A stretch of DNA of 64,000 nt from an uncultured Clostridium sp. (GCA_902492105.1 CABUKD010000001.1:6987-70986); one strand, 5' to 3'. Shown: positions 5,676 to 18,122, counted from the stretch's first letter. Numbers and translations: made by a program. Notes: generated by a model not told the origin, from the sequence alone.

Positions 5676-5987
5676 TTAATAACTTAGCTTTTTTTGGATA
5701 CCTAGCCCATCTCCATAGCAAATTAAAGTTTCTATTTTTTTATTTACTTTTTTTGGGATATTAGTTATTTTTAGAGATTGTTCAAAAATTTTTTTATTGT
5801 TTTGGTTTATGGTAAAATCAGATTGTTGTAATTTAGCTTCTTGTAAGTTTACTTCTGATATATTGGTTTCTTGTAACTTTAGATTTTGCAAGTTTAGTAC
5901 TTGTAGATTTTGGGCTTGTAATTGTTTTACCGGTTCTAGTCCAAATTTACTTTGAAACCAGGAAAAAATTCTTTTTATAATACTCAT
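5676..5987 (-). CDS. Pentapeptide-repeat protein.
   Basis: Runs of A(N/D)Lxx-like pentapeptides (LQAQNLQVLNLQNLKLQETNISEVNLQEAKLQQSDF). Its start overlaps the stop of the upstream gene by 4 nt. Confidence 0.6.
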   Translation of the reverse strand: MSIIKRIFSWFQSKFGLEPVKQLQAQNLQVLNLQNLKLQETNISEVNLQEAKLQQSDFTINQNNKKIFEQSLKITNIPKKVNKKIETLICYGDGLGIQKKLSY

Positions 5988-7570
5988 CTTTCTTCTCCCT
6001 TCTCACTTTTTTCTGAAGCGACGGAACTTCTAGATAAATCCACATCTTGTTTTTCTTGCTCTTCTAATTCCCATGGTCTAAATCCATTTGCTCTTTCCAA
6101 ATCTTCTTTATAACATTCAAATTGTTTTGTAAATTCTTCTTGTGGTAGTTCTATAAATTGTCCGGCTGTTTTATCTGCAAAGTAGAATTTTTTTCCTAAT
6201 TCATTTGAATTAAGATAAACATATAAAACTGGTCTTTTTTTCTCATCTTGTTTATGGTACACTCTATGAATAACACATTTGTTAAAGTTGAAGTTCTTAT
6301 CATTTAATAGGATATCTTTTAAAACACGCATAGTAGAATTTGGGCATGTAACAAATTCTGGACAAACTTGAGAAAGTAGTAAAAATTGCTTTTGAATATC
6401 TGTTTCTGGTTCATTTGCATAAAGTTCGTGTAGCATCTTTGATTTTTCTATTAAATCTTTAATAGGAAATTGCCCATCTTTATCTGCTAGCCCAACACTT
6501 GTAAATAATGCTCTTAAATTTTGTTCATTTAAGCTTAAAGTTATATTGCTTAATTGAGAATCATTTTTGTGACTATTGCTATCTTTTCCGTCTTCATCTA
6601 TATCTAATTTTCTTGCTTGTTCATAACTAATACAAAAATTATCTGGTATAGCATCAAATCTATGGCTTGTTAAATTCCATGTTGGGTCTATTATGGTATC
6701 ACCTTTTTGTAATTCTCCATTTTCATCTGGAAGTTCTATATCTTTCACTTTTAGAAATGCATGATTTTCACTTTGCACAATTTCACTTTCAATACCTATT
6801 CTTTGCAAAATATATTGTTCTACTGCTGCTATTCCATTACAAACACCATAACCAGAAGTAATAATTTTCCATAATGCCCTAGCATCTTTTGGGTTAAACA
6901 CTTCTGTCTCATAATCTGGAGTATAGCTTATTTTTTTACCAATAGCATGGTCAATAATCGCCATTTTTTGTAATTTAGAATAGCTAGGATCTAAGCTATT
7001 AACAAGGGAGCTTATCCATTGTTCTGCTTTTTTATATTCATTTGGAGTAGAAAAAAATTGTATCGCGTAAGCTATTTCATTGCTTACTTCCATATTAGGG
7101 CAAATATCACATAATTGTAAAAAATTTTTTCTTTGTTCTTCATCAAATCTTTCTGGATTAACTCTCATTATGGCATCTAGTCCACGATAATCTTCCAAAT
7201 TTCTTTCTAAGTTTAAAATAACACGCCCAGTATATACTGATGTTGGAATACTAAGTGCTGTTTTATATTCTTCTGGGAAATTAGTAGTATCAATTTCTCG
7301 CTTTACCTCTTCTTTCAACGTTGCCAAGATTTCCATTTTCTCATTTAGTGTTAAATTAAAATGTTCTAAATTTGCTACAAATTCTTTTTGTTGCTCAACA
7401 TTAAATTCACGTACAATTTCATATGGACGAATATCTATTGTACTACAAAATTGTTTACACTCTTGTAAAAATTGGTGTAAAGTTTCTATATCTAATAATG
7501 ATAGTATGTCTAATTTCTCATATTTTGTATGAGCTTTTTCTAATCTTTTTCTTAAAATTTGAATATCCAT
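5984..7570 (-). CDS. Transglutaminase-like superfamily protein (putative cysteine protease fold).
   Basis: 528 aa. Core GYGVCNGIA ... HAFLKV ... D(TIID) consistent with the Cys-His-Asp triad of transglutaminase-like domains. Confidence 0.5.
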   Translation of the reverse strand: MDIQILRKRLEKAHTKYEKLDILSLLDIETLHQFLQECKQFCSTIDIRPYEIVREFNVEQQKEFVANLEHFNLTLNEKMEILATLKEEVKREIDTTNFPEEYKTALSIPTSVYTGRVILNLERNLEDYRGLDAIMRVNPERFDEEQRKNFLQLCDICPNMEVSNEIAYAIQFFSTPNEYKKAEQWISSLVNSLDPSYSKLQKMAIIDHAIGKKISYTPDYETEVFNPKDARALWKIITSGYGVCNGIAAVEQYILQRIGIESEIVQSENHAFLKVKDIELPDENGELQKGDTIIDPTWNLTSHRFDAIPDNFCISYEQARKLDIDEDGKDSNSHKNDSQLSNITLSLNEQNLRALFTSVGLADKDGQFPIKDLIEKSKMLHELYANEPETDIQKQFLLLSQVCPEFVTCPNSTMRVLKDILLNDKNFNFNKCVIHRVYHKQDEKKRPVLYVYLNSNELGKKFYFADKTAGQFIELPQEEFTKQFECYKEDLERANGFRPWELEEQEKQDVDLSRSSVASEKSEKGEER

Positions 7571-7772
7571 TATTTCTCCTCTTTGGCTCTTTATCTCTTG
7601 TTTTGCATCTTTTCTTCCTTAAGTATTATTTTATAAAAATTGTTACGTTTTTTATTTATTATACATTATCTCTTGAAAAAATCAATATGGATATTGTAGA
7701 TTTGATTTTTTAAAACTTTTCTAATCTTAATTTTCTATGTTTTTCTTTATATAAAAAAATTTAGATCTCATG

Positions 7773-7797
7773 AAAAAAACTCCCTTTAGGGAGTTTT
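7773..7797 (-). terminator. Rho-independent terminator at the 3' end of the mod-res-orfA-orfB operon.
   Basis: Perfect hairpin AAACTCCC-TTTA-GGGAGTTT followed on the minus strand by a U7 tract. Confidence 0.7.
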
Positions 7798-7885
7798 AAT
7801 TAGTTGGAGCGAATAACATACAAGTTACGAACTATGTTCTCTTTCTAAAAATATTATATATCATTTTATAATTATATTCAATTAT

Positions 7886-8947
7886 TTAATTCAAATAAGC
7901 AGGAGTTCCATAGGAAAAAGATTCATTAAATAAATAATTTAGTACAAAGTTTGGGAATCTCCTTTTTACACATTCAATATATATCTTTATTATACTTACA
8001 ATTGCATCATTATTACCATTTAAAATTAAATTCCAATTATCTTGATGGTATCTTACTTGCTCACTTAATATGAAAAAGTTAATATAATCTATTAATATCT
8101 GTGGTAATAAGATATTTTTTTTCTTGTTATTATTATAAATGTCTACAGGAAAAACAAAATATCTTCCCCCTATAACAGTATTATAGTTATAGAAAAATTC
8201 AAAGTTAGAAAGAGGCAAGTTATCGTTTGAAATATATTGTGTAAATGTTGAACTGCCATGCATTGGTTGTTTTGTATATTTAGTGTTTATTTTGGGATTT
8301 TTTTTCTCTAATTTATTAGAGTCTGTTGTATAAATTCCAAATGCGATTTTTTCATTTTCTATTTTTAATTCGCTATAACAATAAATACAATTAGAATCAA
8401 ATATTTTTATTTTATCTATTAAATTTTTTAATTCCGGCACAGTAGAAATAGTATCTTTAAATTTTATAGTATCCTTTTTATCAAATGTTATATTAAAAGT
8501 TTTTGCAAGTTCTAAAAAAACACCATCATTAACATTTGCATATTCATTTAATAAATTCCAATTGTTTTTTTTGTTTTTTTGTATTTTCTGTTTTTCATTT
8601 ATTGGTCTGGTTGTAAGTCCATGATATTTTATATCATCTAAAAACAACTCTCTTGATGAATTTGAAATTATTATGGCTTTTGAAAATGAAAGCATACCGT
8701 AATAAATAAGCAACGGAGATATGGATATATCCGCTTTTTCTGAATTCTTAAAAAATTCAATTCCTTGTTTAATGCAAAAAGATATTTCTTTTGCTTTTTT
8801 TCTTTCAATAGATGAAATTTTTGAACTCATTATTTTTCTGTTTGATTTTATTTTTCCACATAATAATTTTTCACAATTTTTAGAATATGACAACATTTCT
8901 AAATGCTGAAAAATATCTTTTTTTGGATTTTCTGACCATGTATGCAT
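7886..8947 (-). CDS. Uncharacterised protein (orfB). It has a PLLIYYGMLSFSKAII motif reminiscent of YaaC-like proteins. Last gene of the Type III R-M operon.
   Basis: 353 aa, soluble, no recognisable catalytic motif. It follows orfA after a 13-nt gap and is terminated by the hairpin at 7773..7797. Confidence 0.5.
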   Translation of the reverse strand: MHTWSENPKKDIFQHLEMLSYSKNCEKLLCGKIKSNRKIMSSKISSIERKKAKEISFCIKQGIEFFKNSEKADISISPLLIYYGMLSFSKAIIISNSSRELFLDDIKYHGLTTRPINEKQKIQKNKKNNWNLLNEYANVNDGVFLELAKTFNITFDKKDTIKFKDTISTVPELKNLIDKIKIFDSNCIYCYSELKIENEKIAFGIYTTDSNKLEKKNPKINTKYTKQPMHGSSTFTQYISNDNLPLSNFEFFYNYNTVIGGRYFVFPVDIYNNNKKKNILLPQILIDYINFFILSEQVRYHQDNWNLILNGNNDAIVSIIKIYIECVKRRFPNFVLNYLFNESFSYGTPAYLN

Positions 8948-8960
8948 TTTTAACCTCCTT

Positions 8961-9815
8961 TTATCTGTAGATTGCTATTGGGGTTACAACAAAAGCTGGT
9001 CCTTTAATAGAGTCTTTTAATTCTTTTGGATTAGATAAATCTTTAGGCATTTTTCTTTTTTGTTCTCTATTTAAATTTAATTTTTTTACATTATCAAATA
9101 TTTCATCTAATTCAATGCTTTTTCCTTTTTCTACTTTTTTTTGTACTTTACAAAGAAGATAGCATTGTGATTTAATATTTTCTTCATCAGTTTTAAAAAA
9201 AGTAGTATTTAATTCTGCAATAAAAGGATATTTTTTATTTTCAAAATTAAATACACAAGATACCATTGAAGTATCATTTATTCTTGAAATTGTTTCAAAT
9301 CCAGATAGTGCTTCTTTTGTTTTACTATCAATCATATCATCACTCATATAAGGTTGAAATGCAGTAATTAAATTGTTTAAGTTTTTTGCCATATTAGATA
9401 TTTCTTTTATTTTTGAAAATCTAGGTGTTACTAATAATTCTAAAAAATCGTCTCTATAAATATCTTGCCATATATTTTCATCAATTTCTTCATAATATTT
9501 TAATTCATCTTCATTTTTTAGATATTTTATTACTTTATCTAATTTACTAGAATCAGTTATTCTAACATTTTTTGTAGTAGTATTAGTATTTTGCTTTCCT
9601 AAATTTGCTTCTGCTGTTAATTTTCCAAATCCTATACCAGCTTTTCCTCCTTTATCATCTACGTTATTACTAGTAATTATTTCTTCATCGTAAGTATATC
9701 CGTCTATTTGAGATATATAATCATTTATTGCCTCAATATCTAAGTATAAGATATTTCTCAATGCCATATTATCAAAACCTTTCTTATCTAAAATATTTTT
9801 TTCAATAAAATCCAA
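8961..9815 (-). CDS. Uncharacterised protein (orfA), translationally coupled to res.
   Basis: 284 aa. Its start overlaps the res stop by 28 nt. No known motif recognised. Confidence 0.5.
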   Translation of the reverse strand: MDFIEKNILDKKGFDNMALRNILYLDIEAINDYISQIDGYTYDEEIITSNNVDDKGGKAGIGFGKLTAEANLGKQNTNTTTKNVRITDSSKLDKVIKYLKNEDELKYYEEIDENIWQDIYRDDFLELLVTPRFSKIKEISNMAKNLNNLITAFQPYMSDDMIDSKTKEALSGFETISRINDTSMVSCVFNFENKKYPFIAELNTTFFKTDEENIKSQCYLLCKVQKKVEKGKSIELDEIFDNVKKLNLNREQKRKMPKDLSNPKELKDSIKGPAFVVTPIAIYR

Positions 9816-11986
9816 TTATCATTTTCCATATCTTCTGTATATTCTGTATTACATAAATATAATGAATCATTCTTATCGTAATCTCTAACAAATCCCCAAT
9901 TTACATTATACTTTTTAGCATATTCTTTTAATGCTTCAAACTTATTTTCTACTTTTATATCAATATTTTTTGATTCACCTTCAGCATTTTCTCCGCCTTT
10001 TGTTTCAATAATCCAAATTTTATTATCTTTATCGCAAACTATGAAATCAGGGTAGAAGTGCCACTTATGATTTACTGCATCTACATAAACTATGGAAAAA
10101 TAGTCACTAGATTTTTCTCCATTTTTATAAAACCACTTAATACTTTCGTTATTTTCACAAAAATATTCAAACATTCTTTCAGATTTTGATTTTATTGTGC
10201 TATTAGGATAATTTAAATATATTGATTTTTCATAAATAGTAGTATCTCTCATTTTAGGATCATATTTGATATAATCCATTTCTGGAAAATGCCAATCAAT
10301 CTCTTTTAATTCTTCAAATTTCATTTTTATTTGTCTTGCTTTTTGAGATACTGCTTCTTGAAAATCATGTTTTAATATATCTTCATTATTTATCACAAAA
10401 GCATAAAACTCAGTTAAAGTTAAATCTACAAATTTTTTAGTAAATAATTTTTGTTTCCAAAACATTCTTTCTAGCATTAATCTAGTTCTATCATAACGCA
10501 TACCAATTTTAGATGCTATTTCATTTATAGAATGTCTTAATTCAAAACCATTTTTATTTGTAGTTACAGTAGATTGTACTTTAATTCTATTAGCATTTTC
10601 TAGTTCATTGCTATTAATCCTAACAATTTTATCTTGAACTATGTAATTATCAATAGTATCTTTAAAAACATATCCATTAGCTTCTAAAATTGTTTTATTA
10701 TCTTTCTTTTTAGAAGTTAGTTTATATTTATCTATGTAAAATTTATGTAATATATTGAAAGTTTCTCTTTCATCAAATCCATCAAAATTATTATCAAAAG
10801 TTAATTTCTTTAAAGTAAAGTTTTTATATTCATTTTTTAAAAATATAACTTTTGTATCATAAGCGTTATTACCTAATTCTTGTTTAACAGATTGTTCATA
10901 TTTTTCATCAAAAGTATATAAATAACAATTATCAAGTAAAACATTATCATAGTGATGTCCTTGTGGCATTCTTCTAATTCTACCAATAGTTTGAGTTTCA
11001 AAATCTTCATTCATATTATCACGAAGTTTTACAAGTATTTTAGCACGTGGACAATCCCAACCAGTAGATATTGCTTGTTTCATAATAAGTATTGCTTGAT
11101 TTGATTCATTATCTTCAATATTATCTATATTTTCTTTTCTATCAGCAAGCCATATAGCAAGATTTTGTTTTATATAGTCATATCCTTTTTCTTCAAGAAT
11201 TTTTTCTATCATTTTTATCAAATCATCAGATTTGCTTGGTACTTGAATAATAATTAAAGGATTTACCTGAACACCTAATTTTAAATATTCATTTTTAATT
11301 GCTTTTCTTTTTTCTATTGCAAGGTCAAGCAAATATTCATGTTCATTGGAAAGAGCAGTATCATTTGATACATTTTCATTAATATAAAGTGCTCTTGTAA
11401 TTAAACCAGAATTTATAACTTCTAATTCATCGATAGCAATAAATTCTGCTTCTTTATTTGTTTTAGTAGTAGCACTAACTCTAATAATATAATTAGGATT
11501 CATATATTCAATAATACTTTCAGCTTTAACAGTTTTATTTAAATGTTCTTCATCAACGATTACAATAAATTTGTATCCTGAGTTATGTGCTTCATGTATT
11601 CTTTCATATAGATTTTTTCTTTCAGCATCTTTTAAAGCATTGTTGCCTTTTTTAGTAATCGTTTCCCAGTTAATAAATGCAGTAGATTTTTCTTCAAAAC
11701 CTTGAAGTAATACATCTTGAATATTTTGTGTTTTATGATGAGGTAAAAACTTTAACATTTTCTTTCTACTTTGTTCTTCTAAATCTCCTTTACCAGGAGT
11801 AAGCCATACAAATAAAACATTTTTATTTTCTTTAAAATATTCTTCAATATATGAAAGTAATATAATTGTTTTACCAGATCCAGTAGGTGCTTGTACTAAT
11901 ATTTCTTTTTTAGTACCAATACTTGTAGCATCTAATAATTTATTTACTGTATCAAGTTGAAATTTTTTTAATTTAATTCCTTGCAT
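9788..11986 (-). CDS. res: Type III restriction enzyme Res subunit (SF2 helicase plus C-terminal PD-(D/E)xK nuclease).
   Basis: Walker A VQAPTGSGKT, DEEH box (IVIVDEEH), and a C-terminal FYPDFIV...IIETKG PD-ExK-like motif. Lies immediately downstream of mod. At 732 aa it is shorter than many Res proteins. Confidence 0.8.
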   Translation of the reverse strand: MQGIKLKKFQLDTVNKLLDATSIGTKKEILVQAPTGSGKTIILLSYIEEYFKENKNVLFVWLTPGKGDLEEQSRKKMLKFLPHHKTQNIQDVLLQGFEEKSTAFINWETITKKGNNALKDAERKNLYERIHEAHNSGYKFIVIVDEEHLNKTVKAESIIEYMNPNYIIRVSATTKTNKEAEFIAIDELEVINSGLITRALYINENVSNDTALSNEHEYLLDLAIEKRKAIKNEYLKLGVQVNPLIIIQVPSKSDDLIKMIEKILEEKGYDYIKQNLAIWLADRKENIDNIEDNESNQAILIMKQAISTGWDCPRAKILVKLRDNMNEDFETQTIGRIRRMPQGHHYDNVLLDNCYLYTFDEKYEQSVKQELGNNAYDTKVIFLKNEYKNFTLKKLTFDNNFDGFDERETFNILHKFYIDKYKLTSKKKDNKTILEANGYVFKDTIDNYIVQDKIVRINSNELENANRIKVQSTVTTNKNGFELRHSINEIASKIGMRYDRTRLMLERMFWKQKLFTKKFVDLTLTEFYAFVINNEDILKHDFQEAVSQKARQIKMKFEELKEIDWHFPEMDYIKYDPKMRDTTIYEKSIYLNYPNSTIKSKSERMFEYFCENNESIKWFYKNGEKSSDYFSIVYVDAVNHKWHFYPDFIVCDKDNKIWIIETKGGENAEGESKNIDIKVENKFEALKEYAKKYNVNWGFVRDYDKNDSLYLCNTEYTEDMENDNWILLKKIF

Positions 11987-13741
11987 TTACATTACCTCCA
12001 TAATTTCATCTTCAAAATAATATTCTGGTATGATATATACTTCAATATTATTATTTTTAAATATAGATTCTTGCGTTGATGTTAAGAGTATATCTGAAGA
12101 TATATATACTTTTTCGCAGACATCTAATTCACTTTGATTTTTACTAAATTTATCTAATTCATCTTCGTCTAAATAAACTCTAATTTTATTGTCATCTATT
12201 TCAATACCGTTTTCTAATTGAATAAGATTTTTAATATTAATTAGTAAATTATTGTGAAGATTTTCATCTTCAGTATTAATTCTTGGTATATATGTGCATT
12301 TATAATATTTTAAATTTGCTTCTAATGGATTATATTTTCCATAACCTTCAATCACGTTTTTTATTCTCTTGTAAGTTATATTTTCACAAATTTGATTTTC
12401 ATTATTAGTACATAGAATAAAATGCCTTTGTCCGTTATCCTCGCTATTTAGTTCTAATACTGCTTGAGCAGTACTACCAGAACCTGCAAAAAAATCTAAA
12501 ATAGTAGCGTCTTTTTTTGTATGATAATTTATAAGTTCTTTCAGCATCTTGGCTGGCTTTTTTCCACTATTAAAAGGTATATTTCCTTCGTGGCGAATAT
12601 TACCAAAATCAGCTGCAAAATTCATTAAATTAGAAATAGGTACTTCCCTAAAAGAGCCATGTTGAGAGTTTATTTCTTCAACTCTAGATAATGGCATTCC
12701 AGAGTACATTTTGCACCTAGTAGAGCCTTTTTTTGCAGGTCCAACATAATATCTGTATCCTAATCCATCATCACCACGACCAATCACTTTATATAAGCAT
12801 CCTAGACCATCTATATTATATCTTGGTTCTATATATTTTCTAACGACTTGACCATATGACATTTTAGAATAAATTGTTCCTGAAACCCAAGTTTCTTTAA
12901 GTAAGTTAATATTTGATTGTTCTTTTTTTTCTATTATCCATTCGTTAGGCTTAAACACTTTAATTTCAGTATTATCTTTATGTTTAATGGTAGTTCCACT
13001 CGAAATTTCTTTAATTTCATAAATAAAACTAGCATCAGTATATTCTTCTTTTGGTAAATTTATTTTAAACTGACTGTAATCTTTAGCGTAGACTAATACA
13101 TATTCCATTACTGGTTTAACTGATTTTCCATCAGCTAAAGACTTTTCTGCATATCTAACTTGAATATGATGAATGGATATCCTATTAGTTTCATTAAAAA
13201 TATCATCACAAAGTAGTTTTAACTGTGCTATTTCATTATCATCTATCGAAATAAAAATTATACCTTTATCATTAAGTAATTCTTTTGCTATTCTTAGTCT
13301 TTTTTCCATAAAAGATAACCATTTAGAATGTTTGTATCCATCTTCATTATCAATAATTTTATCATTATAAATAAAATCATCGCTACCTGTATTATATGGA
13401 GGATCAATATAGATTACATCGATTAATCCTTTATGAGTTTTTTCTAATAGATATAAACTATGAAGATTATCTCCCTCTAATAAAAAATTAAACTTATCTT
13501 TTGGATTAGATACTATTTCTTTATCTTTTACTTCTTCAAAAGTAGGTATCTGAGTTTCTAACTCTTTATCAACTCTTTCTTCGTGTTCTTCCCATATAAG
13601 TCCATATTTCTTTTTAGTCAATTCATTTTCTATCATTGATAAATTAGTTAATGTTTCTTCATCAGTAATATTTTTTTTAATTTCGTTAATTGTATTTAAC
13701 ATTTTATTTCTTCTAATTTTTGATAGATTAGTAGTTTCCAT
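11987..13741 (-). CDS. mod: Type III R-M Mod subunit (beta-class N6-adenine/N4-cytosine DNA methyltransferase).
   Basis: IYIDPPYNTG (motif IV, DPPY) lies N-terminal to FFAGSGSTAQAV (motif I). That beta-class order is typical of Mod. Its stop abuts the res start. Confidence 0.85.
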   Translation of the reverse strand: METTNLSKIRRNKMLNTINEIKKNITDEETLTNLSMIENELTKKKYGLIWEEHEERVDKELETQIPTFEEVKDKEIVSNPKDKFNFLLEGDNLHSLYLLEKTHKGLIDVIYIDPPYNTGSDDFIYNDKIIDNEDGYKHSKWLSFMEKRLRIAKELLNDKGIIFISIDDNEIAQLKLLCDDIFNETNRISIHHIQVRYAEKSLADGKSVKPVMEYVLVYAKDYSQFKINLPKEEYTDASFIYEIKEISSGTTIKHKDNTEIKVFKPNEWIIEKKEQSNINLLKETWVSGTIYSKMSYGQVVRKYIEPRYNIDGLGCLYKVIGRGDDGLGYRYYVGPAKKGSTRCKMYSGMPLSRVEEINSQHGSFREVPISNLMNFAADFGNIRHEGNIPFNSGKKPAKMLKELINYHTKKDATILDFFAGSGSTAQAVLELNSEDNGQRHFILCTNNENQICENITYKRIKNVIEGYGKYNPLEANLKYYKCTYIPRINTEDENLHNNLLINIKNLIQLENGIEIDDNKIRVYLDEDELDKFSKNQSELDVCEKVYISSDILLTSTQESIFKNNNIEVYIIPEYYFEDEIMEVM

Positions 13742-13897
13742 TATTACAACTCCTTACGTTAAAACCATTTAATTATCTTAATTTTGATGTGCGTTTTTTT
13801 CTGTTAATATTATACTATATATTGCTTATATTTTCCATACTTCGACTAAAATTGCTAAAGAAAAAATCGGATATTTCTATCCAATTTTTTAAAAATA

Positions 13898-14224
13898 TTA
13901 TTCGATGTTTAAATTGAATTTTATATCGTCACATATATCATTCAACCAAGTTAAATAATGATTTAAATCATGTTCTTTAATATAACCATATCTATGTGCA
14001 TCCCTAGCAATAGTATTAAGTCCATTTCCAATCATTTTGAATTCATCACGATGTTTTTCTAGTATACTCATATCAGCTTTGATAGGAGTATATTCTTTAA
14101 TCAATTTTCTAATATAATCTGACTTACTTAAATTCAATTTTTTACATTTTTCTTCTAAAATTTTATTTTCTTCTTCAGATAAATACAATGTTTTTTCAAT
14201 CTTTCTTTTTCTCATCTTTTCCAC
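13898..14224 (-). CDS. MobC-family mobilisation (relaxosome accessory) protein with ribbon-helix-helix region.
   Basis: 108 aa. LSKSDYIRKLI RHH-like segment and the conserved GNGLNTIARDAH motif (MobC GNNLNQIAR consensus). Confidence 0.6.
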   Translation of the reverse strand: MEKMRKRKIEKTLYLSEEENKILEEKCKKLNLSKSDYIRKLIKEYTPIKADMSILEKHRDEFKMIGNGLNTIARDAHRYGYIKEHDLNHYLTWLNDICDDIKFNLNIE

Positions 14225-14331
14225 CTCCTTTCTTATGTAAGGGGATTGGGGATTTCCCCATATACGAATTTGTGCGAGTGTACAAATTCAGTGCTGGCTA
14301 GACAAAAAATTATATCTAGTACATACACTTT

Positions 14332-14691
14332 TTAAATAAATATTAATTCTTTTAAGATTATTTCTTCAGCCATATTTTTGTAATTGTTCATAAGTTTTGA
14401 CCATTCTATATGATTAATTTCTTTATTTTTTTCAGATAGTTTTTCATCTGAATTTTTGTAATTTTTCATTAATATTTGTAATCTATCTTCACTATTTTTA
14501 CTAACTGAAATAAGATGATTAGTAAGTTCATTAGTCATTAAAAGTGTAGTGTAAAGAGCTTTCTTATTTTCCTTTAAATAGTGTAATCTTAAATATCCAT
14601 ATTTGTTTATTCCTTTAGTATTTTGATTTTTTATAGTTAAATTTGGTAATAAATAATTTCCATTTCGTGTATAAATTAATTTCATTTTCAT
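14332..14691 (-). CDS. tnpV: TnpV-like protein (Tn4451/Tn4453 family transposon accessory protein).
   Basis: 119 aa. The MKxKxxYTxxGxYxLPNLT ... YGxxRLxYLKE ... LMNNxK ... EEIIL pattern matches Clostridial TnpV as remembered. It sits directly downstream of the large serine recombinase, as in Tn4451. Confidence 0.55.
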   Translation of the reverse strand: MKMKLIYTRNGNYLLPNLTIKNQNTKGINKYGYLRLHYLKENKKALYTTLLMTNELTNHLISVSKNSEDRLQILMKNYKNSDEKLSEKNKEINHIEWSKLMNNYKNMAEEIILKELIFI

Positions 14692-14707
14692 CTCTCCATT
14701 TCTTTAT

Positions 14708-16498
14708 TTAATTAGTGACTGCAATATCTTTTTTAGGTACTAATATTAAAATATCTTTTAGTTTGTTTTCTTCAACATAAGGACAGCTAATAATGCCATC
14801 AATATATAAATGTTCTCTTGATTTTGATATAAAATATTCTAAAAATTCATTTGAATATTTATTTGATTTCATTTTTTTAATAGATAAAATATCATAATCT
14901 ACTTCTATATTTTTTAATTTTTCTTTGTTAATTTCTTTATAAAATTTGATACCAATATTGTTGTTTTCCATAATTTTATTAAGATATTTTATATATTCTT
15001 TACTGCTTTTTGTTATTAGTTCATCTGTAAATTTTATATTTTTAACATCAATGTTATAGTTTTTATCTCTTGTTATTTCTATTTGAGATATAAGTCTATG
15101 AATTAAATCTCTTTTAGCTTTTCTTGTTAGTAAATCATAAAGAAAAGTAAATCCTATATTTTTAATATTTGTAAAAATTAATTTGTCGTTTTCTTCAATA
15201 CAGTCTAATTTTTTAACAAGTTCTATTGTATATTCTTTTGAAGAATTATCTGGATCAAGAGTTGTTTTCTTTTTATTTAATTTATCTATTTCTTTCTTTA
15301 TTACTTCATTTTTGTGATTAATTGTTTCTACATTCAAAGTAGAGCTTAAATATAAATCAACTAATCTTTTTTCCTGCATTTTTAATTTTTCAATAGCTTT
15401 TTCTATTTCTTTTACATCATTACTTTTAGTAGAATTACAAGTAATAATTTCATTATTCATAGAAAGCATAAATATTGTTAACTCTTCTAATATTTGTTTT
15501 AATTTTTCTTCTATCTTTTCTGTATTATAATGATATCCATAACCTTTACAATTAGTGTTTTTACATCTTAAGTGGTAATATACTTTTTGCTTTCCATTAG
15601 GATATTTAAATGATTCTGATGAACTCATAATTTCTCCACATAAAGGGCATTTAACTAATCCTGAAAATAAATGAATGTGCTCACCATAATTAGAATGTTT
15701 ATTTTTAACTAATACATTTCTAGTTGCATTCCAAGTATTTATATCAATAATTGGTTCACAATAATTTTCGACTCTTAAAATATCTTGAGGTTTTCTTTTA
15801 TACTTTCCATATTCAAATATTCCAATATAAATTGAATTAGTAAGTATTTTATAAACTCTATCTGATAACCATTTTCCTTGTTTTAAGTAAGCGTTATTAT
15901 CGTGCATAATAGTTGCTATATTTCTTGTGGAGTGTCCTTTTTTGCATAGTTCAAATATTTCTTTTACTACTTGTGATTCAATAGGTTCTATTTCTAAATG
16001 ACCAGTATTTTTATTTCTAACATAGCCATAAGGTGCTTTACTAGGGTGTATTTTTTCTAAAGCCATTTCTTCCATAGCTCTTTTTGTTCTTGCTCCAATT
16101 TCTTTTCTTTCTCGTTGACCAAATACTAAGTTCATTCCAAATATCATTTCACCATTAGCAGTAGATACATCATAAGGTTCTAATATTAATTCTATTTTAA
16201 CATAGTGTTCTTCACAGTAATTTAAAAGCCAAAATCCATCATAATTATTTCTTGTAAGTCTATCTACTTTAATAGCAATTAATTTGTCAATCTTTTTAGA
16301 TTTTATATCAGCAAGTAATCTTTGCATTTCTGGTCTCATTAAATCTTTTCCAGAATGTCCTGCATCATTGTAAACATCAACGATACTATAATCATTCTTT
16401 TCACAATACTCTTTAATCATTCTAAGTTGTGAATCAATAGAATAACCATTATCTCTTTGATCATCTGTACTAACTCTTACATAAACACCACATCTCAT
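14708..16498 (-). CDS. tnpX: Large serine recombinase (TnpX-like). Probable true start MRCGVYVRVSTDDQ at 16496-16498, with AGGAGG RBS at 16505-16510. The ORF track extends to 16558.
   Basis: N-terminal resolvase catalytic domain (YVRVSTDDQ, DRLTRN) plus long recombinase/zinc-ribbon C-terminal extension. About 597 aa. Confidence 0.85.
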   Translation of the reverse strand: MRCGVYVRVSTDDQRDNGYSIDSQLRMIKEYCEKNDYSIVDVYNDAGHSGKDLMRPEMQRLLADIKSKKIDKLIAIKVDRLTRNNYDGFWLLNYCEEHYVKIELILEPYDVSTANGEMIFGMNLVFGQRERKEIGARTKRAMEEMALEKIHPSKAPYGYVRNKNTGHLEIEPIESQVVKEIFELCKKGHSTRNIATIMHDNNAYLKQGKWLSDRVYKILTNSIYIGIFEYGKYKRKPQDILRVENYCEPIIDINTWNATRNVLVKNKHSNYGEHIHLFSGLVKCPLCGEIMSSSESFKYPNGKQKVYYHLRCKNTNCKGYGYHYNTEKIEEKLKQILEELTIFMLSMNNEIITCNSTKSNDVKEIEKAIEKLKMQEKRLVDLYLSSTLNVETINHKNEVIKKEIDKLNKKKTTLDPDNSSKEYTIELVKKLDCIEENDKLIFTNIKNIGFTFLYDLLTRKAKRDLIHRLISQIEITRDKNYNIDVKNIKFTDELITKSSKEYIKYLNKIMENNNIGIKFYKEINKEKLKNIEVDYDILSIKKMKSNKYSNEFLEYFISKSREHLYIDGIISCPYVEENKLKDILILVPKKDIAVTN

Positions 16499-16532
16499 AA
16501 AATTCCTCCTTTCTTCATTTTTGAGAAGGATT

Positions 16533-16687
16533 AATATTCCTCTCACTTGTTTCCTCACTTAAGTTTAAAATAGCAACCTAGATTTTTAAAAAAATTAATC
16601 TTCTCATATGTTTCCTAACTAAAACTCAAAAAAGCAGACTGAATTTGAAAAAAATTAATCCTCTCATATGTTTCCTCGCTAAAAGGC
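16533..16687. repeat. Three ~32-bp direct repeats, consensus ATTAAT(C)YTCTCAYWTGTTTCCTMRCTWAA, in the recombinase 5' UTR/promoter region.
   Basis: Copies at about 16533-16562, 16594-16625 and 16656-16687, spaced ~60 bp apart. The first copy sits just upstream of the RBS. Confidence 0.6.
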
Positions 16688-16717
16688 ACTTTTACGAAGT
16701 GTATTTTCAAAAAAAAT

Positions 16718-17002
16718 TTAATATTTGTATTTTTTTATAATATTTTCTATTTCTTTTAAGTTATATTTTGCTTTATGTTCTTTAATGTAAAATGGTTTAT
16801 TACTGATTTCATTTACTTTGTACTCAAGAATAGTAAGAGTAATAGGATGCGTAATTAGATATTCAGTTGGTTCTATAATTTGTAAATTAGTATGTAGAAG
16901 AACTTTGATTTTTCCTTTTTTAGTTTTGTAAGTGTAGTTTTTAATAAGTTCTATTATTTTTGGATTAGGTTTAAGTTCTTCTAAGATTTTAAATTCAAGC
17001 AT
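16718..17002 (-). CDS. Hypothetical protein, 94 aa.
   Basis: ORF only. No motif recognised. Confidence 0.35.
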   Translation of the reverse strand: MLEFKILEELKPNPKIIELIKNYTYKTKKGKIKVLLHTNLQIIEPTEYLITHPITLTILEYKVNEISNKPFYIKEHKAKYNLKEIENIIKKYKY

Positions 17003-17093
17003 AAAAAATGTCCTCCTTCCTAGAAAGAGAACATTAAAGTTTTATATAAAATAAAAACTTACGAGCCATTATAGTCCGTAAGTTGTATTCAAA

Positions 17094-17167
<74 letters not shown>

Positions 17168-17311
17168 ATTATTATTTAGTTTGTTCATTCTTTTTGCATG
17201 AACAAATAATATTATAAATGGTATTTCGTATTTTGTCAATCATTTTTATGAATTTTTTTTCATTTCTTGCATATTTTTTTATAAAATAAAGAAAGGGTAA
17301 ATGTACAAAAT

Positions 17312-18122
17312 ATGAAATTTCTTATTGATTATTGTAAAGGGATTTTAATTGGTAGTGGTGCAATTTTGCCAGGTATTAGTAGTGGTGTTTTTTGTGTTAT
17401 TCTTGGTATTTATGAAAAATTAATTGATAGTGTTCTAAACTTATTTCATGACTTTAAGAAAAATGTTATTTTTCTTCTTCCTATTGGTCTTGGTGGAATT
17501 ACAGGAGTGTTATTAGTAGGTAAATTGCTTAATTTTCTCTTTAATGAATACCCTATGCCAACTAAGTTTTGCTTTATCGGTCTTATTTTAGGTAGTATTC
17601 CTGTATTATTCAAGCAAGCAAATCAGAAAAACGGTTTTCGACTTTCCCATCTCATTTTTCTAGTAATTGCTTTTTTTATTGGTTTTCTTTCTGTTAAATT
17701 AGAGACTATATTGCCAAATCTCATTAACTTAGATTTAGGAGAAAACAACTTTTTCTATTTTATACTTTCTGGATTTCTTATGGCCATTGGTATTGTAGTT
17801 CCTGGCGTAAGTAGTAGTGTTATTTTAATGTGTTTACGGTGTTTATAACCTTTATTTAGGTGCTATTGCTAGCGTAAATTTATCTATACTAATTCCTATG
17901 GCAATTGGAGTTTTACTTGGAAGTCTCTTATTTTTAAAAATAATTCAATTTTTGTTAAACCATTATTATACACAAACTTTTTATGCCATTATTGGATTTG
18001 TATTAGGCTCTGTTCTTATTTTATATCCTGGCTTTAACTTTAGTTTAGAAGGTTTTATCTCTATTGGATTATTTATTTTAGGTTTTTATATTGGTTTAAA
18101 GTTTGAAAAAGTCAGCCAGTAG
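17312..18122 (+). CDS. DUF368-family membrane protein, split by a frameshift near 17828-17848.
   Basis: Duplicated ILPGISSGV / VVPGVSSSVIL half-repeats typical of DUF368. The ORF stops at 17848 but continues in the +1 frame (GVYNLYLGAIASVNL...) into the 17898 ORF. Confidence 0.7.

Follow-up and report, generated by a model that had tools for sequence, protein, structure and literature searches.

A tRNA-end-targeting serine-recombinase cassette with a Type III restriction-modification cargo in an uncultured Clostridium sp., distinct from the Tn4451/Tn4453 transposons

Background

The ssrA islands of Dehalococcoides carry a CcrB-like recombinase, DsiB, beside their left attachment site (attL), lie in the 3' part of the tmRNA gene, and form tandem arrays with variable cargo (PMC3146451). 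The staphylococcal cassette chromosomes (SCC/SCCmec) and the Enterococcus cassette chromosome, with their CcrAB/CcrC recombinases, likewise carry interchangeable cargo, sit at the 3' end of a conserved gene and form tandem composites. In its working, the element described here most resembles these two systems. It lies in a 64,000-nucleotide stretch of DNA from an uncultured Clostridium sp. (GCA_902492105.1 CABUKD010000001.1:6987-70986), which we call the window and number from its first letter, and it combines a large serine recombinase (LSR), a TnpV homologue and a 94-aa protein, p94, with a Type III restriction-modification (R-M) system.

The ssrA islands share with the window element the position of the recombinase by attL, the use of the 3' part of a structured-RNA gene, the direct repeat, the arrays and the lack of conjugation machinery. 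However, they target tmRNA with a 20-bp repeat and insertion at the T-loop, whereas the family of the window element targets tRNA-Gly and tRNA-Thr with a 6-bp repeat at the CCA end. They also possess DsiA, ParB and Mom, which are absent from the window element, lack its TnpV and p94, and reside in different hosts. In the case of SCC, CcrB is the best NCBIfam match of the window recombinase (1e-43), but the window element has a single recombinase that is not a Ccr orthologue (150 bits against 900) and a tRNA rather than rlmH as its target. In streamlined genomes, the tycheposons of Prochlorococcus carry cargo to tRNA targets and line up in tandem arrays, 27 of 937 of them with a large serine recombinase (bioRxiv 10.1101/2020.12.28.424599). 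In contrast to the window family they mostly use tyrosine recombinases, leave partial tRNA copies and in many cases carry replication genes, and their gene modules and hosts are unrelated to it.

The clostridial mobilisable transposons Tn4451/Tn4453 and their relatives, Tn6104 among them, are small elements with accessory cargo that likewise encode an LSR followed by TnpV and have short direct repeats at their ends, as does the window element (PMC3158075). A sequence-only reading of the window, which noted the tnpX-tnpV arrangement, had placed the element in that family. The window recombinase, however, belongs to another clade without DUF4368 and is closer to TP901-1 integrase and CcrB than to TnpX; the element is devoid of TnpZ and TnpW and has p94 as an extra end gene; and its target, a tRNA 3' end with a 6-bp core, is strictly chosen, as opposed to their loose choice of GA dinucleotides.

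Exact ends of the element and its empty sites

Window positions 7811-17099 very probably constitute a 9,289-bp site-specific integrative cassette with the R-M system as cargo. The sequence-only reading had proposed a search for an empty site in related genomes, and three metagenome contigs (L014, L015 and L017), found by looking up the flanking VCA0040-like protein, have the same flanking genes without the element: in each of them a 528-aa gene, the tRNA-Gly gene and the VCA0040-like gene are adjacent to each other. The insertion is thus proven by the existence of empty sites with the same flanks. Compared base by base, the empty site reads ...GGGAGTTTTAATTAGT-TGGAGC-AGGTGATGGG... (the left flank of the junction in these contigs is also written as ...TTAATTAGT-TGGAGC-AGGTGATGGG...); the window is identical to it on the left-hand side up to 7810 and on the right-hand side down to 17094, and the 6-bp repeat TGGAGC brackets the insertion. 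The features that define the ends are:

7776-7797, minus strand: native terminator hairpin of the tRNA-Gly gene, outside the element; it adjoins the tRNA in the empty sites L014 and L015
7805-7810, no strand assigned: distal core TGGAGC (GCTCCA on the minus strand), the attR junction; identity to the empty site ends at 7810
7811-7840, minus strand: distal terminal arm (P arm), AGAACATAGTTCGTAACTTGTATGTTATTC, which repeats the tRNA-proximal arm imperfectly in inverted orientation
17071-17093, minus strand: tRNA-proximal terminal arm (P' arm), TTTGAATACAACTTACGGACTAT, where identity among unrelated contexts starts
17094-17099, no strand assigned: proximal core TGGAGC, the last 6 nt (GCUCCA) of tRNA-Gly and the attL junction, from the empty site and the junction survey
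17094-17167, minus strand: tRNA-Gly(UCC), the target gene, left intact (ARAGORN; Rfam tRNA, 70.5 bits)
17211-17239, minus strand: tRNA promoter TTGACA-17-TATAAT, outside the element and pointing inwards (12 of 12 consensus bases matched)

The element comprises eight open reading frames (ORFs), all of them intact, as are both ends; from 7886 to 17167 nine features follow one another in the same orientation on the minus strand, and the GC content is 0.20-0.27 inside the element as against approximately 0.29-0.32 in the flanks. The insertion has displaced the native terminator (-11.4 kcal/mol, z -4.0, followed by a U-run) 9.3 kb from its tRNA. Written on the minus strand, the tRNA-side end is GCTCCA-TTTGAATACAACTTACGGACTAT and the far end is AGTTCGTAACTTGTATGTTATTC-GCTCCA. 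The terminal arms form imperfect inverted repeats, AGTyCGTAAsTTGTAT, and a second inverted pair, ATGTTCTCTTTCTA and TAGAAAGAGAACAT, lies further inside. The P' arm is conserved in 78 junctions and the P arm is kept with at most four mismatches at the far end of at least 30 elements of the family. Joined in sequence, these ends give an attP of ...GTATGTTATTCGCTCCATTTGAATACAAC..., which appears to possess the dyad symmetry expected of a serine-integrase site. The attB joint reads ...CACCTGCTCCAACTAATTAAAAC....

The empty sites and the domains of the recombinase bear out the earlier view of the locus as a mobile element that a large serine recombinase has integrated. Its bracket for the left end (7571-7885) contains the actual one at 7805-7810, but the right end, sought within 16500-16720, lies at 17094-17099, approximately 400-600 bp away, because the conserved 94-aa gene also belongs to the element.

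The target tRNA and the survey of junctions

A scan of one genome per species recovered relatives in at least 315 genomes, of which the best 80 have LSRs 76-97% identical. When the DNA upstream of p94 is aligned, identity among unrelated contexts begins abruptly at GCTCCA, and in nearly every context these are the last six bases of a tRNA gene. The core GCTCCA is present in 74 of 78 left junctions. The tRNA concerned is tRNA-Gly in 40 (UCC in 31, GCC in eight, CCC in one), tRNA-Thr in seven (CGU in five, GGU in two), and tRNA-Cys and tRNA-His in one each; the remaining 29, in which no tRNA was called, mostly adjoin the far end of a neighbouring element with which they form a tandem array, and a few look like tRNA ends missed by ARAGORN. 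In a set of 40 distinct tRNA junctions, conservation is 93% or higher at T-arm bases -24 to -16 (GTTCGATTC) and in the core, while the sequence past the distal core is unrelated between sites. On the simplest reading of this pattern, recognition would be confined to the core and the tRNA half-site, and a newcomer could then insert between the tRNA and a resident element.

Two junctions with variant cores, at tRNA-Cys and tRNA-His, put the crossover 3' of position 3 of the core. In the tRNA-His junction (GCCCCA, n=1) the exchange is placed 3' of the T rather than at TC/GA, which hints that it lies in the CCA; this evidence is weak since the matching distal end, in L086, is decayed.

A proposed mechanism and what weighs against it

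The non-cargo part of the element consists of the following features, all on the minus strand:

17007-17035: 13-bp hairpin over the p94 ribosome-binding site, followed by a U-run; terminator-like match
16718-17002: p94, 94 aa, first gene of the element, without a family match; the same protein occurs in at least eight contexts
16535-16684: three direct repeats with a spacing of 60-61 nt, each with an AGYGAGGAAAC box, between p94 and the LSR gene
14708-16498: LSR, 596 aa from the ATG (Pfam Resolvase, Recombinase, Zn_ribbon_recom)
14332-14691: TnpV homologue, 117-119 aa (PF14198, E=3e-29), 16 nt downstream of the LSR gene
14236-14303: cis element of approximately 70 nt resembling an origin of transfer (oriT), with the motif TAGCCAGCACTGAA, a hairpin and the palindrome GGGGAAATCCCC
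13898-14224: NikA-like ribbon-helix-helix protein, 105-108 aa (PF21983, E=4e-11; RHH_1)

In the mechanism that we propose, the LSR would join the attP of the element, two imperfect inverted arms around the GCTCCA core, to a chromosomal attB made up of the T-arm and acceptor end of tRNA-Gly(UCC). Exchange would fall within the last six bases, GCUCCA, the encoded CCA included, leaving the tRNA intact and a repeat at the far end. Because only the tRNA half of attB is conserved, several tRNAs ending in U73-CCA would be usable, and new copies would insert between the tRNA and a resident element to give tandem arrays. Excision would depend on a directionality factor, for which TnpV and p94 are the probable candidates; expression would be controlled by the GAGGAAAC boxes and by the hairpin that covers the ribosome-binding site of p94; and transfer between cells might take place through the oriT-like hairpin with a relaxase supplied in trans. 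Integration is the well-supported part of this scheme, directly observed or strongly implied, while the control of excision and the route of transfer are more conjectural.

Several observations count against the scheme or parts of it. All relatives come from metagenome-assembled genomes or metagenome contigs, in which assembly errors at repeated ends are possible, and an exact search of the JGI metagenomes for the attP joint yielded no circular form or excision product. The crossover dinucleotide cannot be placed within six identical core bases. The roles proposed for p94, TnpV and the boxes derive only from position and conservation, and an AlphaFold2 model of p94 built with 35 homologues (mean pLDDT 50) is unusable for assigning it one. 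Finally, no relaxase is encoded in the element according to Pfam and NCBIfam, and the likeness of the oriT-like site to a nick site is weak, extending to about 7 of 12 bases of the published consensus. Breaks in Logan contigs were also considered as a sign of excision and rejected, as sequence common to related elements and tRNAs explains them.

The oriT-like site and possible transfer in trans

Our best guess, with the NikA-like gene directly downstream, is that 14236-14303 may serve as an origin of transfer for a relaxase encoded elsewhere. The site is composed of the invariant TAGCCAGCACTGAA, a covarying hairpin (GAATTTGT...ACAAATTC) and the palindrome, also given as GGGAAATCCC; it is found once per element, in constant orientation, at no fewer than 70 loci, and extends to neighbouring element families and to LSR-less derivatives. 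In the hairpin alignment 87.8% of cells are paired, compared with 18-46% in slid controls, and changes on both sides occur in 57 cells as against 21.5 in shuffles, none of 500 shuffles reaching as high. On the opposite strand an inverted repeat is followed by CAGTGCTGGCTAGAC, which is loosely similar to the Gram-positive oriT consensus NcgtNtaAgtGCGCcCTta quoted in PMC10333310. Rfam gave no match anywhere within the element, this site included. Roughly half of the family elements carry the NikA-like gene, which in those cases lies directly downstream of the site; its product also has a weak NCBIfam match to MbpA. The earlier reading had called this protein MobC-family, but Pfam assigns it to the NikA-like family rather than to MobC (PF05713), and the description of the element as mobilisable retains as its basis only this protein and the conserved hairpin, which make mobilisation in trans possible. 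Of the traits of an integrative mobilisable element, it has its own integration/excision module, as judged by the recombinase, the conserved ends, the empty site and the multiple insertion contexts; the oriT-like hairpin and the NikA-like protein are candidates for the transfer part, and there is no relaxase.

The hairpin after tnpV could instead be a terminator, an attenuator, a small RNA or an operator, with the elements spreading by transformation or transduction, and we give this reading an appreciable though minor share of the probability. The absence of a relaxase from the element, the presence of just one within 10 kb across the 80 loci, outside the family element, the presence of a few relatives in IMG/VR contigs and the location of the hairpin between two co-directional genes all fit it. 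Yet the invariant single-stranded flanks and the lack of a T-run are unlike a terminator; the site persists in LSR-less derivatives and neighbouring families; the NikA-like gene keeps its place directly beside it; and the inverted repeat followed by AGTGC..CT resembles the Gram-positive oriT consensus (PMC10333310).

A relaxase of the MobA/VirD2 type (PF03432, 2.6e-36) is encoded in L057 (19116-20423) directly after a TnpV homologue, 3 kb past the family element, and may belong to a helper or a relaxase-bearing relative. In L036, four oriT-like sites (at 2583, 7603, 12191 and 16199) occur in the same orientation in one 22-kb stretch, pointing to an array of at least four cassettes from different families.

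Spread of the family and signs of recent movement

The conserved module of the family is p94, LSR and TnpV, often followed by the oriT-like site and the NikA-like protein, whereas the other genes vary. Over 1,100 clusters of the protein collection are close to the LSR. Nearly all hosts are metagenome-assembled genomes of uncultured gut Bacilli, 'Tenericutes/Mollicutes' and Clostridia (Ca. Faecisoma, CAG:354, CAG:571). Complete elements measure 3.9-11.3 kb, with both arms conserved. Other element families found in the arrays have different arms and a 29%-identical LSR with the same core. A literature search, whose coverage was incomplete, found no paper describing the family.

Evidence for movement comes from comparison of close relatives. 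In L005 the same element, at 99.9% identity over 7,755 bp, has unrelated flanks and a slightly different tRNA-Gly(UCC). Conversely, L019 has the flank of the window at 99% and the same tRNA, occupied by another family member (78% identity). Together with the empty contigs and the window itself, the site is hence known in three states: empty, with this element, and with another.

These observations bear on the alternative that the locus is a fixed island, once mobile, whose recombinase module is a relic. The failure to find a circular form in the JGI metagenomes would agree with it, as would decayed relatives: L056 has a mod-res fusion, L086 has lost the distal core, and L055 and L118 contain LSR-less units. 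Against this, none of the eight ORFs of the window element is broken and neither end is damaged, a nearly identical copy lies in another context, and in close relatives the same site is empty or alternatively occupied, which make a fixed island improbable.

Tandem junctions, in which a far end is followed by GCTCCA and the next near end, occur in L055 (13346-13563), L118 (700-950) and L064 (11214-11220). The next unit in both L055 and L118 is without p94, recombinase and TnpV but keeps the oriT-like site, and constitutes a non-autonomous derivative. The search for attP in the JGI metagenomes gave a single hit, at which an element is joined in tandem to such an LSR-less derivative.

The recombinase and TnpV compared with Tn4451/Tn4453

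The LSR has its catalytic Ser10 within the motif YVRVSTDDQ, and its three Pfam domains confirm the serine recombinase seen in the sequence-only reading. Its best PHROG match is an integrase (E=5e-103); among solved structures TP901-1 integrase (9e-20) is matched far better than TnpX (PDB 2mhc, 1e-6). The best NCBIfam matches, CcrB, XisF and CcrC, are all far under their cut-offs (CcrB 149.7 bits against 900; CcrC 118 against 900), and an assignment as an orthologue of CcrA/B or CcrC was rejected for this reason. DUF4368, which is common in, and a marker of, the TndX-like multi-targeting clade (PMC10083194), was not found in the window LSR (Pfam, E<=0.01), whereas the recombinases beside TnpV in the comparators L108 and L107 carry it (E approximately 1e-24). 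Identity to TnpX-like enzymes is 23-25%, over the N-terminal ~320 residues only.

The small protein directly downstream of the recombinase is indeed a TnpV homologue, as had been noticed, and shares 46% identity with the TnpV that a Tn4451-like element encodes on plasmids of Enterobacteriaceae. That element follows the Tn4451 layout, with TnpV first and then cargo, a Pre/Mob relaxase, TnpW and a DUF4368 recombinase. TnpV may be an excision or directionality factor. Neither TnpW nor the Mob/Pre relaxase TnpZ, which in the Tn4451/Tn4453 family goes with an RS_A site, is found among the eight ORFs of the window element by Pfam or NCBIfam, while the Tn4451-like comparator L106 has both.

A true Tn4451/Tn4453 mobilisable transposon, with a TnpX-type enzyme, insertion at GA and its own Mob system, would account for the TnpV homologue directly after the LSR, for the GA at the centre of TGGAGC, and for the ribbon-helix-helix protein that resembles a relaxosome accessory. 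This reading is nonetheless very improbable: besides the limited identity, the missing DUF4368, the weak TnpX match and the absence of TnpZ and TnpW, the specificity for tRNA ends is strict (74 of 78 junctions), p94 separates the end from the recombinase, and the single tRNA-His junction suggests, weakly, an exchange elsewhere than at TC/GA. In the suggested comparison with GA crossover sites, the core, all six bases of which are shared by both ends, contains GA, and the target is strict rather than loose. Of the two proteins expected to group with TnpV and TnpX, the former does and the recombinase does not. The expectation that the recombinase would be the end gene, transcribed from a tnpX promoter reconstituted across the circular joint, was not sustained either. 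The LSR gene is the second from the end, after p94, and no promoter for joint-dependent expression was called at the element end. The bases at -35 distance from the only TATAAT in this end are the shared core, where attL and attP are the same; given this, and the intervening p94, no promoter can be formed across the joint. We conclude that the element is not a member of the Tn4451/Tn4453 family and has only TnpV in common with it.

A prophage or phage-satellite remnant with a serine integrase is scarcely credible, for although the best PHROG of the recombinase is a phage integrase family and relatives occur in 15 IMG/VR contigs, there are no structural, replication or packaging genes here or in 28 complete members (3.9-11.3 kb), and the IMG/VR elements lie mostly at contig edges, three of them beside a tRNA.

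p94 and the control regions

In eight or more gene contexts that are otherwise unrelated, an identical p94 precedes this module of LSR and TnpV, and it is to be included in the element because identity among contexts starts outside it, at GCTCCA. It has homologues in 2,624 clusters of the protein collection and no match in Pfam, NCBIfam, PHROG or PADLOC.

The AGYGAGGAAAC boxes are a family-wide feature, with two to four per element upstream of the recombinase; the three in the window are the only matches within the element. They are probably operators or other regulatory sites, given this placement. Each 60-61-nt repeat could also encode a short peptide (MRGLIFFK..., MRRLIFLK... and VRGILILLK...), the third being in frame with the recombinase. 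The hairpin at 17007-17035 (-14.9 kcal/mol, z -4.7) contains the outer inverted repeat ATGTTCTCTTTCTA and, from its position, could end transcription that arrives from the tRNA promoter and keep p94 silent.

Cargo genes

The cargo lies between the NikA-like gene and the distal end, on the minus strand:

11987-13741: Type III methyltransferase Mod, 584 aa (PF01555, N6_N4_Mtase, E=4e-36; PADLOC MTase_III, E=1.8e-118)
9788-11986: Type III restriction subunit Res, 732 aa (Pfam ResIII, Helicase_C; PADLOC REase_III)
8961-9815: DUF6414 protein, 284 aa (PF19952, E=4e-36), with a 28-nt overlap with the end of res
7886-8947: YaaC-like protein, 353 aa (PF14175, E=1e-36)

The mod and res genes abut and both models are matched (REase_III at E=7e-14), identifying a Type III R-M system in agreement with the sequence-only reading; Res also has a weak Pfam match to a TnsA-like nuclease at its C-terminus. 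The two cargo genes previously listed as unknown are present and can now be matched to DUF6414 and YaaC. In the Dodola defence system DUF6414 forms the DolA domain (bioRxiv 10.1101/2024.10.26.620412). An assignment to Dodola was rejected since the neighbour of DUF6414 is YaaC-like rather than a ClpB-like DolB, and there is no PADLOC match. On the whole, PADLOC and the NCBIfam defence annotation gave nothing for DUF6414, YaaC, p94 or TnpV, and a literature search on YaaC and defence returned irrelevant matches only.

Three more distant YaaC homologues are solo genes, in a Type I R-M island, an element with a type IV secretion system and a Rep element; a fixed two-gene system of DUF6414 and YaaC was accordingly rejected. 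Such homologues, in L109-L117 and 33-53% identical, lie beside Type I R-M with DUF5655 and DpnD-PcfM, in a conjugative element with a type IV secretion system, and in a small Rep element. An accessory or defence-related role on mobile DNA fits the YaaC-like protein.

The cargo of the window element is modular. In L026 (Ca. Faecisoma merdavium) mod-res is kept (98%), and a 1,037-aa PIN-domain protein (L026 7043-10156) replaces DUF6414 and YaaC; its PIN domain (PF20698) is that of the TPR-GreAB-C-PIN system. In L056 most of mod-res is deleted with DUF6414 (70%) and YaaC (79%) intact. Retention of both at full length despite this deletion suggests that they are kept independently of the R-M system. 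In this diverged member (locus 12649-15551) the deletion joins the N-terminal 85 aa of Mod to the C-terminal 237-266 aa of Res. Among the 28 complete elements the cargo amounts to 73 protein clusters, which include ABC transporters, two-component systems, flavodoxins, methyltransferases, GNAT and NUDIX enzymes, and, as defence genes, a CBASS cyclase with a 4TM effector, AbiE, AbiJ and, most frequently, the YhcG-type nuclease PDC-S02.

Flanking genes

The neighbours on the distal side (window 5676-7570) encode the 528-aa protein, for which no family was matched, and a pentapeptide-repeat protein of 103 aa, the stop codon of one gene overlapping the start codon of the other; their presence at the empty sites marks them as chromosomal. 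On the other side the VCA0040-like gene (PF04018) beside the tRNA is split into ORFs of 178 aa and 74 aa (17312-17848 and 17898-18122). The same split is seen in other samples (L022) and is thus not an error of this assembly; it may represent a pseudogene or a two-part gene. A cluster like those of diversity-generating retroelements, with a MutS_I-domain protein, bAvd and a reverse transcriptase, lies on the same contig outside the window (L001 18811-20628), approximately 9 kb beyond the 528-aa gene and just past the window start.

Implications

Several properties appear to be new in their combination: the 6-bp core at the encoded CCA end, the use of several tRNA species, the p94-LSR-TnpV module, the shared oriT-like site and the host range. 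Tentatively, the element might be the first example of a superfamily, very abundant though so far undescribed, of serine-recombinase cassettes that inhabit uncultured gut Bacilli with small genomes; these cassettes would exchange at the CCA end (GCUCCA) of various tRNAs, share a core that permits tandem stacking across families, shuttle defence and accessory genes, and have in common an oriT without a relaxase. For annotation, the corrected assignment indicates that TnpV beside a serine recombinase does not by itself mark a relative of Tn4451. An LSR that reads the T-arm and acceptor end of a tRNA, with any sequence on the other side, represents an unusual choice of target, and this half-site targeting could interest recombinase engineers. 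Gene exchange in the hosts, uncultured gut Bacilli and small-genome 'Tenericutes', is little known, and a compact cassette with swappable defence and transport cargo, present in hundreds of species, would be a main route of gene flow among them.

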